From positions 1 to 52,014 of the forward strand of contig JALHNY010000006.1 in the NCBI GenBank assembly GCA_022843285.1: 52,014 nucleotides of DNA. The letters run 5' to 3'. Below, piece after piece: positions 19,912 through 21,757 of this stretch; the first letter of the stretch is position 1; each line of letters begins with the position of its first letter. This DNA is from Minisyncoccota bacterium. GTDB lineage: Bacteria > Patescibacteriota > Minisyncoccia > UBA6257 > 2-01-FULL-56-20. The position numbers were made by a program, and so were the translations under genes. The notes under the pieces are model-generated. The model did not search any database. It saw only the letters and a list, made by a program, of their open reading frames with translations, and was not told where the DNA came from.

Positions 19912-20535
19912 TTAGCCTTCCGCCAAAATGGACTCGACTTCGTCCATGATTTCGTTCCACTTGCGCTCCGCGCGGCGGCGGGCGGCTAGGCCCGGCAGGT
20001 TCTCCTCGTGGAAGCGCACCGAGGCCTTCCCGCTGGCGGACGGCACGACGCTCATCTGGAACGTGCGCTGCGGCACCCCGGGCTCCACCACGGCAATCCT
20101 CACACGGATGCCGGGTGTCAGGCCTCGCACCTCCACCTTCTTGCCGTGCAGCTGCTGCTTCGCACCCTTCACGAGCTCGAGCTCGGTGCCGTCCCCGGCC
20201 CAGGCCTCGAGGCCGATGCCCGCCGTGAGGAGGCTCCAGGCGCGCTCGGGTGAGACGGAGAACGTGCGCGAGATGCCGAACTCGAACCCCGCTCCCGACG
20301 TCTGCCCGAGCAGGCGGAGCCCGCGGGCGCGCTCGTAGTTAACCGTGATCGCCTGCTGCCACCAGCTAGCCTCGACGCCGTGGCGGCGCAAGAAGCCCAC
20401 GCGCTCTCTGTGGCTCCAGAGCTCGGCGTGCTCACCGTCGAGCATCGCGTACCACTCCGCGCTGGTCTTCCCAGTTGCGCGGACGGTTGCCTCGTCGCTG
20501 ATGCGAGTGGCCTGTTTGGTTGGGCGCTTAGCCAT
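19912..20535 (-). CDS. SRPBCC/AHSA1-like domain protein with small helical N-domain
   Basis: ATGKTSAEWYAMLD, WWQQAITVNYE, ISRTFSVSPERAW and VRFHEENL; start moved downstream of tRNA-Trp. Confidence 0.7.
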   Translation of the reverse strand: MAKRPTKQATRISDEATVRATGKTSAEWYAMLDGEHAELWSHRERVGFLRRHGVEASWWQQAITVNYERARGLRLLGQTSGAGFEFGISRTFSVSPERAWSLLTAGIGLEAWAGDGTELELVKGAKQQLHGKKVEVRGLTPGIRVRIAVVEPGVPQRTFQMSVVPSASGKASVRFHEENLPGLAARRRAERKWNEIMDEVESILAEG

Positions 20536-20547
20536 GTCAGTTGTGTT

Positions 20548-20621
20548 TGGCGGGGGCACAAGGAATCGAACCCTGATCGACGCTTTTGGAGAGCGTTGTC
20601 CTACCGTTGAACGATACCCCC
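20548..20621 (-). tRNA. tRNA-Trp(CCA)
   Basis: Acceptor GGGGGTA/TGCCCCC, G73, encoded CCA; anticodon arm ACGCT-CTCCAAA-AGCGT. Confidence 0.95.
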
Positions 20622-20820: not shown

Positions 20821-20848
20821 GTGAGTGAGTGTTGAGTGTTTATGCCTG

Positions 20849-20921
20849 AGCCGATGACAGGATTCGAACCTGCGGCCTTTTCCTTACCATGGAAATGCTC
20901 TACCAGCTGAGCTACATCGGC
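20849..20921 (-). tRNA. tRNA-Thr(GGT)
   Basis: Acceptor GCCGATG/CATCGGC; anticodon arm TTTCC-ATGGTAA-GGAAA; CCA not encoded. Confidence 0.95.
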
Positions 20922-20947
20922 AGCTTACGTCAGAGCTAAGCCGGCAA

Positions 20948-20976
20948 TTTATAGCAATTTCAGGGTTTTTGCGCAA
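20948..20976 (-). promoter_or_regulatory. Promoter TTGCGC-N17-TATAAA (extended TG) for tRNA-Thr(GGT)-rpmG-tRNA-Trp
   Basis: Overlaps the 3' end of the LAGLIDADG-like gene. Confidence 0.65.
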
Positions 20977-21637
20977 TAGCCCCTGTTCCAGCCTGTCTCT
21001 GGTAGAGAAGCTCAGCGGGCTCTCCAAATTCACTCGCCTGCCGCTCCAGGCAGGCGAGCATGAGATTCCTGAGTCTCACGTTATGGTAGGAAACCGTCGC
21101 CACCCCGTAGCGGCTCCGATGCCGGTACGTCCCCTGACCACGCCGCTCGGTTACGAAGGTCTTATAAAACTGCGCGGCGGGTACACCCAACTGAGTCTCC
21201 CAAAACCTCTCCACGCTTTCTGATTCTAAATCGGGAAAAATCTGCAACTGCACCCTTGCCAGTGATCGGCTCACGCCAAAAAATTTTTCTACAAACTTCA
21301 TGAAACTCTTCAAGAGCCTGGGGTCAGAATTCCCCAAGCGAACAGCGTTGGGGTTTGCCTTATTGCCCTCTCCCCAATAGAGCCCCAGCCCTAAACCGAA
21401 CAACCGACAATCTTCCGCACTCTCTGGTTGAGTAAACTTGAACGGATCCCCACCTGGGTTATGCCGGACGTACACAGCCTCTCCAATATTGCGCTTCACC
21501 ACACCCATACCCTTGAGCCTGTGGTTAATCCCCTGTGCGGAGCATCCGGCTCTCTCTGCAATCTGTGCAGCAGAAAGTTGCTCGCCCACGTACATTGAAC
21601 GAATGGATTCGTCTGAAAGCTTGATACGATTCGCCAC
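20960..21637 (-). CDS. HTH + single-motif LAGLIDADG-like endonuclease-fold protein
   Basis: LSAAQIAERAGCS (HTH); FGLGLGLYWGEGNK..LGNSDPRLLKSF..FWETQLGVP; lower GC than neighbours. Confidence 0.7.
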   Translation of the reverse strand: MANRIKLSDESIRSMYVGEQLSAAQIAERAGCSAQGINHRLKGMGVVKRNIGEAVYVRHNPGGDPFKFTQPESAEDCRLFGLGLGLYWGEGNKANPNAVRLGNSDPRLLKSFMKFVEKFFGVSRSLARVQLQIFPDLESESVERFWETQLGVPAAQFYKTFVTERRGQGTYRHRSRYGVATVSYHNVRLRNLMLACLERQASEFGEPAELLYQRQAGTGAIAQKP

Positions 21638-21684
21638 GCCTCACCCTAGCAAGCGAGCCATCAAGAATCCGTCAAAATGCTGTG

Positions 21685-21757
21685 AGCCGGAGACAGGATT
21701 CGAACCCGCGACCTGCTGTTTACAAAACAGCTGCTCTACCAGCTGAGCTACTCCGGC
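21685..21757 (-). tRNA. tRNA-Thr(TGT)
   Basis: Acceptor GCCGGAG/CTCCGGC; anticodon arm GCTGT-TTTGTAA-ACAGC; CCA not encoded. Confidence 0.95.

Follow-up and report, generated by a model that had tools for sequence, protein, structure and literature searches.

The stretch of Minisyncoccota bacterium contig JALHNY010000006.1 analyzed here, called the window throughout (the whole 52,014 nt, to which all coordinates refer), contains an open reading frame (ORF) encoding 225 aa that lies between two threonine tRNA genes. The ORF (20960..21637, minus strand), whose product has a helix-turn-helix (HTH) and a LAGLIDADG-like core, opens with a GTG codon, from which its N-terminus aligns with those of its relatives P0002–P0008; a shorter call of 211 aa in one source is consistent with a start at the ATG of codon 15 (21595). 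tRNA-Thr(UGU) (21684..21757, minus strand; found by ARAGORN and, with 70.7 bits, by the Rfam tRNA model) ends 46 nt before the ORF, and an intact, intronless tRNA-Thr(GGU) (20848..20921, minus strand; ARAGORN and Rfam) begins 38 nt after its stop codon. The downstream host genes are rpmG, for ribosomal protein L33 (20638..20820, minus strand; an ORF whose homologue in the related loci L205–L207 carries Pfam Ribosomal_L33), and tRNA-Trp(CCA) (20548..20621, minus strand; ARAGORN). The divergent dnaE gene is on the far side of the ORF/tRNA interval from rpmG.

A first-pass annotation, made from the DNA letters and their translations, had described a LAGLIDADG-like ORF between co-oriented, similar tRNA-Thr genes followed by rpmG and tRNA-Trp, and both the coordinates and the shared blocks that it quoted were verified: the two tRNA-Thr genes are 79% identical over 75 nt, and the blocks are common to both. 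The ORF also has the lower GC content that had been noted for it (53.8% versus 64.0% for the window), and no intron or intein surrounds it in the window. That tRNA-Tyr and tRNA-Gly genes occupy this interval in other bacteria agrees with the tRNA-Tyr found upstream in many related loci and with the Escherichia coli order thrU-tyrU-glyT-thrT.

A protein family at the 5′ edge of tRNA genes

Homologues of the window protein numbered 470 at E ≤ 1e-3; they are ~198 aa long, ~45% identical and all labelled hypothetical, and in this set every homologue with an organism name is from the Patescibacteria, or Candidate Phyla Radiation (CPR). When a profile of the core domain (residues 66–205) was searched against 1.84 billion representatives, 3,743 clusters, each defined at 50% identity, passed E ≤ 1e-3, and 1,605 passed the stricter E ≤ 1e-10. 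No name for family members appeared in any source consulted, and the members that were sampled, together with their neighbours, are all "hypothetical".

A genome scan located 402 loci, 80 of which were fetched, and in every one of the 78 that could be assessed tRNA-Thr(GGU) follows the ORF directly. The attachment is often closer than in the window: in 39 of 67 loci the offset between ORF and tRNA is −10 or −11 nt and the stop codon is inside the tRNA. In these loci, L003, L005, L009, L014 and L033 among them, the stop is a TAG at tRNA nt 8–10, an overlap of 10 nt. Many ORF C-termini (ending in LPM or KPL) are encoded by the tRNA, their frame running through GCCGATG to the TAG of GTAGCTCAG. 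Because of this overlap the last three residues of the ORF are dictated by the acceptor stem, and the stop codon of the ORF would leave the transcript, since RNase P cuts at the 5′ end of the tRNA. On the other side of the ORF, only 25 of the 75 loci have a tRNA gene within 300 nt upstream. What the loci generally share is a tRNA downstream, not a pair of tRNAs.

Attachment to a tRNA gene was also observed in the paralogues of the ORF, which were collected by a hidden Markov model search of all fetched DNA and by locating five representatives on their contigs. Stop codons of these paralogues were found within −38 to +42 nt of a co-oriented gene for tRNA-Thr(UGU), Tyr, Trp, Met, Gln, Gly(GCC), Ile(UAU) or Lys(UUU). 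Overall, ~20 of 21 other paralogues are −38 to +118 nt from a tRNA; among 1,253 control ORFs (≥ 150 aa) from these loci, 3.3% have a tRNA in the equivalent position. The first-pass annotation had proposed counting homologues adjacent to tRNA genes, and this count came out in favor of such an association. Genomes can have several paralogues, each at a different tRNA. A 441-aa member in the actinomycete Actinocorallia lasiicapitis (L208:2501-3826), 118 nt upstream of tRNA-Gln(UUG), indicates that the family is not confined to Patescibacteria.

Another member, of 295 aa, overlaps a tRNA-Gly(UCC) on the opposite strand (L202:168-1055 and 3913-4055). On its contig there are also several small, successive ORFs without annotation and a gene with the Pfam LAGLIDADG_2 domain, and the region may be a mobile element or phage-like. 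A tblastn search of a phage collection with two family members returned no match.

The window ORF is best explained as part of a large unnamed family, in its tRNA-Thr(GGU) branch; each member of the family is located just 5′ of one particular tRNA gene. That the family, present in hundreds of bacterial genomes, mostly Patescibacteria, behaves like a mobile selfish cassette placed directly before a tRNA gene is supported by the comparisons that follow.

Group I introns, empty sites and a separate history

ARAGORN missed many of the tRNA-Thr(GGU) genes downstream of the ORFs because 51 of them are split by an insertion. In these loci (51 of the 78 with an ORF) a group I intron of 169–256 nt interrupts the adjacent tRNA-Thr(GGU) after nt 36, ~27 nt from the ORF stop; the tRNA sequence before it ends in …CCATGGT, the insertion ends in G, and the tRNA continues with AAGGAGT…. 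Elements that resemble the R and S of group I introns are present in the insertion (CGAACGACTGACAAGGG and AAGATACAGTCTA), and in 148 of 155 cases its removal in silico restored tRNA-Thr(GGU). When 30 diverse copies were aligned (A5), 51 pairs were revealed, 35 of them with compensatory changes; the 5′ splice site has an invariant U·G, and the last nucleotide is a G. The intron was seen at L009:2225-2411 and at 147 other loci (e.g., L016, L031 and L066). Rfam does not call it at the curated threshold, and at the E-value threshold Intron_gpI scores 20.9 bits versus a cut-off of 50. Since both ARAGORN and Rfam at its curated threshold miss the intron, genomes that carry it would seem to be without tRNA-Thr(GGU). 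A paralogue that had appeared to be an exception to tRNA attachment is explained in the same manner: in L150 the family ORF (139-759) ends 8 nt before the start of a tRNA-Tyr(GUA) (~770-1075) that a different group I intron, with the element GATATAGTCC, interrupts after U35.

These introns bring in another explanation for the ORF, that its product is the trans-acting partner of the tRNA-Thr(GGU) intron, either an endonuclease that cuts intronless tRNA-Thr(GGU) genes where the intron inserts, which would let ORF and intron spread jointly (collaborative homing), or a splicing maturase, and that the copy in the window was left behind when the intron was lost. Both LAGLIDADG maturases and collaborative homing have been described (PMC3984707), and the intron itself is well supported by its splice-site pair, its terminal G and its compensatory changes. 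It sits close to the ORF stop in about two thirds of the ORF-bearing loci, and the L150 paralogue has an intron of its own immediately downstream; however, the two-thirds figure counts ORF-bearing loci only, and enrichment is thus unproven. No intron interrupts the tRNA in 27 of the 78 loci with an ORF, the window and its three relatives among them; the tRNAs that follow most other paralogues are intact; and 49 of 88 intron-bearing loci have no ORF. The anticodon stem-loops of intron-bearing and intronless ORF-bearing alleles overlap, which gives no sign of self-immunity. We consider this explanation unlikely. The idea that intronless ORF-bearing alleles protect themselves by a diverged anticodon stem was dropped for the same overlap, which includes the commonest stem-loop.

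The counts of loci without an ORF were obtained from a metagenome scan for the intron alone. It gave 120 loci, and those with at least 850 nt of upstream sequence were assessed (n = 88): the ORF was present in 39 and absent in 49. By tblastn, 32 loci had an intact ORF, 1 a frameshifted ORF and ~8 truncated or internally deleted remnants that abut the tRNA, and 40 had no trace of it. An empty site was also found between two tRNA-Thr genes as they occur in the window. In L196, tRNA-Tyr and tRNA-Thr(UGU) are followed by a 71-nt spacer and tRNA-Thr(GGU), and in L078 the same tRNAs, 98–99% identical to those of L196, have the ORF in place of the spacer; the flanking DNA outside the tRNAs is ~73–81% identical. 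Near-identical genome pairs that differ only in the ORF were absent at an identity of at least 85%, the best usable pair being ~81% identical downstream. The ORF is therefore polymorphic in presence at one fixed site, with empty alleles of the kind that the first-pass annotation had called for (L196 versus L078, plus the 40–49 ORF-less loci). Its further suggestion that tRNA genes serve as recombination flanks holds in part: the flanking tRNAs of L078 and L196 are almost identical, but the scarcity of upstream tRNAs across the loci does not fit a general role for the pair.

Three Logan contigs from related samples, L210, L211 and L212, with a DnaE that is at least 90% identical, all end in tRNA-Thr(UGU) or among the first 50 nt of the ORF, 171–317 nt upstream of dnaE. 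These breaks at the tRNA-Thr(UGU)/ORF 5′ region hint at strain-level variation.

Comparison of the window with L205, its closest relative and one that shares its synteny, revealed that the ORF has a history decoupled from that of its flanking genes. Flanking proteins are 90–97% identical, with synonymous divergence (dS) of 0.29–0.75, while the ORF products are only 65% identical. The proportion of differing synonymous sites (pS) is 0.77 for the ORF (0.85 for the core), and its synonymous sites are saturated; the pS of the neighbours is 0.24–0.48. The corresponding nonsynonymous value (pN) of the ORF is well below its pS. At the DNA level, identity is ~80% at the 5′ end of the ORF, declines gradually to ~50% over its 3′ half and recovers sharply near 20990, a point upstream of tRNA-Thr(GGU) and ~30 nt short of the stop. 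The GC content of the ORF is 8–15 points below that of its genome in all four relatives. Together with the empty sites and remnants, this agrees with a cycle of invasion, decay and loss, and it bears out the view of a free-standing homing element next to tRNA genes, as had first been put forward.

The recovery of identity near 20990 also bears on a promoter that had been noticed in the last codons of the ORF, pointing at tRNA-Thr(GGU), rpmG and tRNA-Trp. The motif, TTGCGC-N17-TATAAA, is present, but only its −35-like hexamer TTGCGC (20971..20976, minus strand; TTGC invariant in four relatives) is within the last codons. The −10-like TATAAA (20948..20953, minus strand), which is preceded by TGC in the manner of an extended −10 and is kept as TGnTATA[AT]AT in four relatives, is in the 38-nt spacer after the stop. 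The hexamers have 3/6 and 5/6 consensus positions, and a consensus promoter scan did not call them. A GCTTAG block in the tRNA leader (20936..20941, minus strand), invariant in the four-way alignment, is a candidate region for the start of transcription. It is plausible that the motif is the promoter of tRNA-Thr(GGU)-rpmG, because TTGC-N17/18-(TGn)TATA[AT]AT and the following GCTTAG are conserved in four relatives, in which the adjoining ORF DNA is only ~50% identical. The −35-like element is just downstream of the point at which identity with L205 returns, and the motif therefore appears to be part of the conserved host flank that the 3′ end of the ORF overlaps, rather than something brought by the cassette. 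Most relatives have no spacer at all between ORF and tRNA, and the proposal that the element persists by supplying the promoter is therefore not sustained.

Several smaller features were observed around this region. The remainder of the spacer (20922-20947) and its homologues in L205–L207 have a conserved GCTTAG(G) and, after it, a short hairpin with arms that differ between relatives (e.g., TTAGGTC..GACCTAA in L207). Within the 3′ end of the ORF, at 20992-21019, stretches of 11–15 nt are complementary (87–93%) to the D-arm and the T-arm/acceptor of the flanking tRNA-Thr genes; these may be due to chance or be a relic of tRNA-derived sequence. Beyond tRNA-Trp, where secE-nusG are expected in many bacteria, the next gene (19912-20559) encodes a protein of 207/215 aa called "YndB with AHSA1/START domain" in one source. 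It is followed by thioredoxin-like and DsbB genes, in an order that is kept in L205–L207.

The core domain and its resemblance to I-DmoI

The N-terminus of the window protein has a predicted HTH at approximately residues 9–43 (21509..21613, minus strand; family HTH_23/HTH_28), with helices at 9–18, 23–30 and 34–43 in the AlphaFold2 (AF2) model. In the window copy it is a weak match (HTH_20, E 0.02), the only one that the protein alone gave against Pfam, NCBIfam and the PDB, but it is clear family-wide, with HTH_23/HTH_28 in 18–19 of 30 members; the HTH assigned at first thus stands for the family and is faint in this copy. PHROG matches of the N-terminus are to the HTH part of HNH endonucleases.

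Matches of this region to HTH_23, HTH_SB, HTH_7 and HTH_Tnp_1, together with Sleeping Beauty and resolvase chains in the PDB search, are what would be expected of a site-specific enzyme, similar to transposases or integrases, from a minimal insertion element aimed at the 5′ flanks of tRNAs. We regard such an enzyme as highly improbable. Neither terminal inverted repeats nor a target-site duplication surrounds the ORF, the tRNA genes themselves being the only inverted or direct repeats that flank it; no DDE, serine- or tyrosine-recombinase domain was detected with Pfam or NCBIfam; and the sole enzyme-like similarity of the protein is to I-DmoI. An insertion sequence-like element was rejected for its lack of terminal inverted repeats and of a recombinase catalytic domain.

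The core domain (residues 66–205; 21023..21442, minus strand) was modelled by AF2 with a mean per-residue confidence (pLDDT) of 87.6 and a predicted template modelling (pTM) score of 0.83; the full-length model has a pLDDT of 79.9. No Pfam family covers the core, and single-sequence searches of Pfam, NCBIfam and the PDB returned nothing for it. Its LAGLIDADG-like motif LFGLGLGLYWGEGNK (residues 79–93; 21359..21403, minus strand) has an invariant Glu90 and Lys93 and aligns with GLYVAEGDK of I-DmoI. The corresponding stretch LFGLGLGLYWGEG is predicted by AF2 to be helical, and Glu90, at its end, aligns with the Glu of GLYVAEGD. Across 30 relatives GLGLYWGEG.K, D105, D136 and N186 are invariant, among others. 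In 46 distant members the HTH and a "LYWGEGxK...NSDP" core are common, and Y, E, K, N, W and G are invariant among them. Two putative catalytic residues, the Glu and Lys of GEGxK, do not vary in any of three alignments (30 close, 46 distant and 36 mixed relatives).

The similarity to I-DmoI emerged from profile searches. Among endonucleases in the PDB, a profile of the 46 distant relatives matched I-DmoI only, with an E of 6.5e-5 over half a domain; the family GLYwGEGdK...NsDpellkifikFl aligns with I-DmoI GLYVAEGDKTLKRLRIWNKNKALLEIVSRWL. In its longer form the match sets GLmLYwGEGdKtkkntvslsNsDpellkifikFl against I-DmoI GLYVAEGDKTLK-RLRIWNKNKALLEIVSRWL, that is, from the second LAGLIDADG motif of I-DmoI through helix alpha2. 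A second family profile again matched I-DmoI chains only (E 1.4e-3). The Glu and Lys of I-DmoI in this alignment are its catalytic E117 and K120. Pfam LAGLIDADG_3 gave sub-threshold matches in 6 of 30 members (best E 0.005) at the corresponding profile positions, and a profile of close relatives returned only HTH-type noise from the PDB.

In both proteins the helix ends in an acidic residue and Gly-x-Lys (GLYVAEGDK in I-DmoI, GLYWGEGNK here), followed by a short hairpin and an amphipathic helix. I-DmoI, however, is an intron-encoded monomer with two motifs, whereas the window protein is free-standing and has an N-terminal HTH, an apparent insertion of ~40 residues and a single motif, for which reason it would be expected to act as a homodimer. 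Unlike members of the LAGLIDADG_3 group, it falls below every Pfam threshold and has no Foldseek match in the PDB. The LAGLIDADG-like assignment of the first-pass annotation is accordingly confirmed in part, by the invariant GLGLYWGEGNK and the I-DmoI profile match, with Pfam matches that stay below threshold and no LAGLIDADG structure in the Foldseek top 50.

Taking position, polymorphism and motif together, we think that the ORF is probably a free-standing homing endonuclease gene of the single-motif LAGLIDADG type with an N-terminal HTH module. Several observations weigh against this. The AF2 core has the topology a-b-a-b-a-b-b-a, which becomes the canonical a-b-b-a-b-b-a only with an insertion of ~40 residues between beta3 and beta4. 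Foldseek searches of the PDB with the full-length and core AF2 models found no LAGLIDADG enzyme in the top 50 and nothing at E ≤ 1e-3. In addition, the synteny of the ORF is kept in four relatives whose neighbouring genes have diverged to 53–82% identity, indicating that the ORF can persist for long, as a host function would also allow, and the saturated pS could be inflated by the deviant base composition of the ORF.

The Foldseek check that had been suggested for the fold neither confirmed nor refuted it. The best PDB matches, OmpA-like and IspF folds (E 6e-3), were rejected as not meaningful (TM < 0.4). Against viral models (BFVD) the matches were weak (E 0.02–1.1, none at E ≤ 1e-3) and included some homing endonucleases, one annotated intein-containing phage protein and viral polymerases that possibly have inteins. 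We read the core as derived from a LAGLIDADG domain into which ~40 residues have been inserted between beta3 and beta4; a colinear match in the second-profile alignment is consistent with the insertion and is weak.

The kept synteny, together with intact ORFs and strongly conserved motifs in hundreds of genomes, a pN well below pS and the conserved promoter-like element at the 3′ end of the ORF, would also suit a DNA-binding protein of LAGLIDADG origin that has been domesticated to regulate or mark tRNA operons and is inherited vertically for its host function, an alternative that the first-pass annotation had raised itself. WhiA, a bacterial chromosomal protein with LAGLIDADG-type and HTH domains, has the same domain set. 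WhiA is near-universal in its lineages, and in it two degenerate LAGLIDADG domains, without the catalytic acidic residues, precede a C-terminal HTH. The family described here has the opposite domain order and a patchy presence, and its Glu/Lys pair, of a type that is typically lost in domesticated LAGLIDADG proteins, is invariant. A vertically kept regulator also sits poorly with empty sites and decayed copies, with several paralogues per genome on different tRNAs, with synonymous divergence far above that of the neighbours and with a persistently foreign GC content. We therefore judge domestication to be quite improbable, although the synteny in the four relatives fits it.

Proposed homing into tRNA leaders

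If the ORF does encode a homing endonuclease, its mobility can be pictured as follows. The protein would dimerize through its LAGLIDADG helix and cut alleles that lack the ORF, at a site within or next to the conserved tRNA-Thr(GGU) gene, and repair of the break from an ORF-bearing allele would copy the cassette in. The highly conserved tRNA gene or genes could act as homology arms between otherwise diverged genomes. Insertion in the tRNA 5′ leader would be harmless because, as we propose, RNase P trims the leader, much as splicing spares the hosts of intron- and intein-borne endonuclease genes. In the lineage of the window, the 3′ end of the ORF would overlap the promoter-like element of the host tRNA-Thr(GGU)/rpmG and not the tRNA itself.

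The closest functional precedent is SegB of phage T4, a free-standing GIY-YIG homing endonuclease whose gene is in a tRNA cluster, which recognizes the T-psi-C motif of tRNA and drives the inheritance of itself and of the neighbouring tRNA genes (PMC2330249). SegB shares with the window ORF a free-standing gene among tRNA genes; it differs in being of another nuclease family and a single gene of a phage genome, whereas here there are thousands of clusters, each at the 5′ edge of a specific tRNA, with stop codons inside the tRNA. Intronless homing and collaborative homing are also documented (PMC3984707), the latter, in trans, for F-CphI with the psbA intron and mobE with I-TevIII (PMC3984707, PMC6083498, PMC2790892). 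The frequent co-occurrence of family ORFs with ORF-less group I introns is similar to such cases, but the tRNA of the window is intronless, and ORF and intron are independent at many loci. LAGLIDADG endonucleases have also been described in CPR bacteria, inside insertions or introns of rRNA genes (PMC11270868). These are of the same phylum and broad enzyme class and likewise target conserved structural-RNA genes; they are inside the RNA gene, however, whereas the window family is in the 5′ leader and is not recognized by Pfam LAGLIDADG models. No description of a tRNA-flanking LAGLIDADG family or of tRNA group I introns in CPR was found in the literature searched, coverage of which was incomplete.

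More tentatively, the tRNA 5′ leader may be a third "phenotypically silent" niche beside introns and inteins, one in which thousands of HTH-LAGLIDADG genes have radiated on the 5′ edges of tRNAs, with the tRNA as both target and homology arm and with targets that are shared with group I introns. The cassette would often share the first 10–38 nt of the tRNA, and at least one copy would have reached an actinomycete. RNase P would remove the RNA of the cassette from the tRNA precursor, perhaps with the stop codon of the ORF, and so limit expression of the ORF. Targets shared with the tRNA-Thr(GGU) and tRNA-Tyr introns could be raw material for mobile introns.

If these interpretations are correct, they would identify an uncharacterized family of ~3,700 clusters at 50% identity that has no Pfam or NCBIfam model and whose sampled members are all "hypothetical". 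Its members, single-motif LAGLIDADG enzymes with an HTH, each for a different tRNA sequence, would constitute a ready-made panel of putative meganuclease specificities. For the Patescibacteria, they would also bring to light group I introns in tRNA-Thr(GGU) and tRNA-Tyr, in genomes that would otherwise be scored as lacking those tRNAs. The loci with both elements would supply numerous natural cases in which a free-standing endonuclease gene is paired with an ORF-less intron at one target, the proposed intermediate in the origin of mobile introns. Lastly, the tRNA leader trimmed by RNase P would be a new habitat for selfish endonuclease genes, and this would explain the extra genes in the tRNA neighbourhoods of these ultrasmall bacteria.

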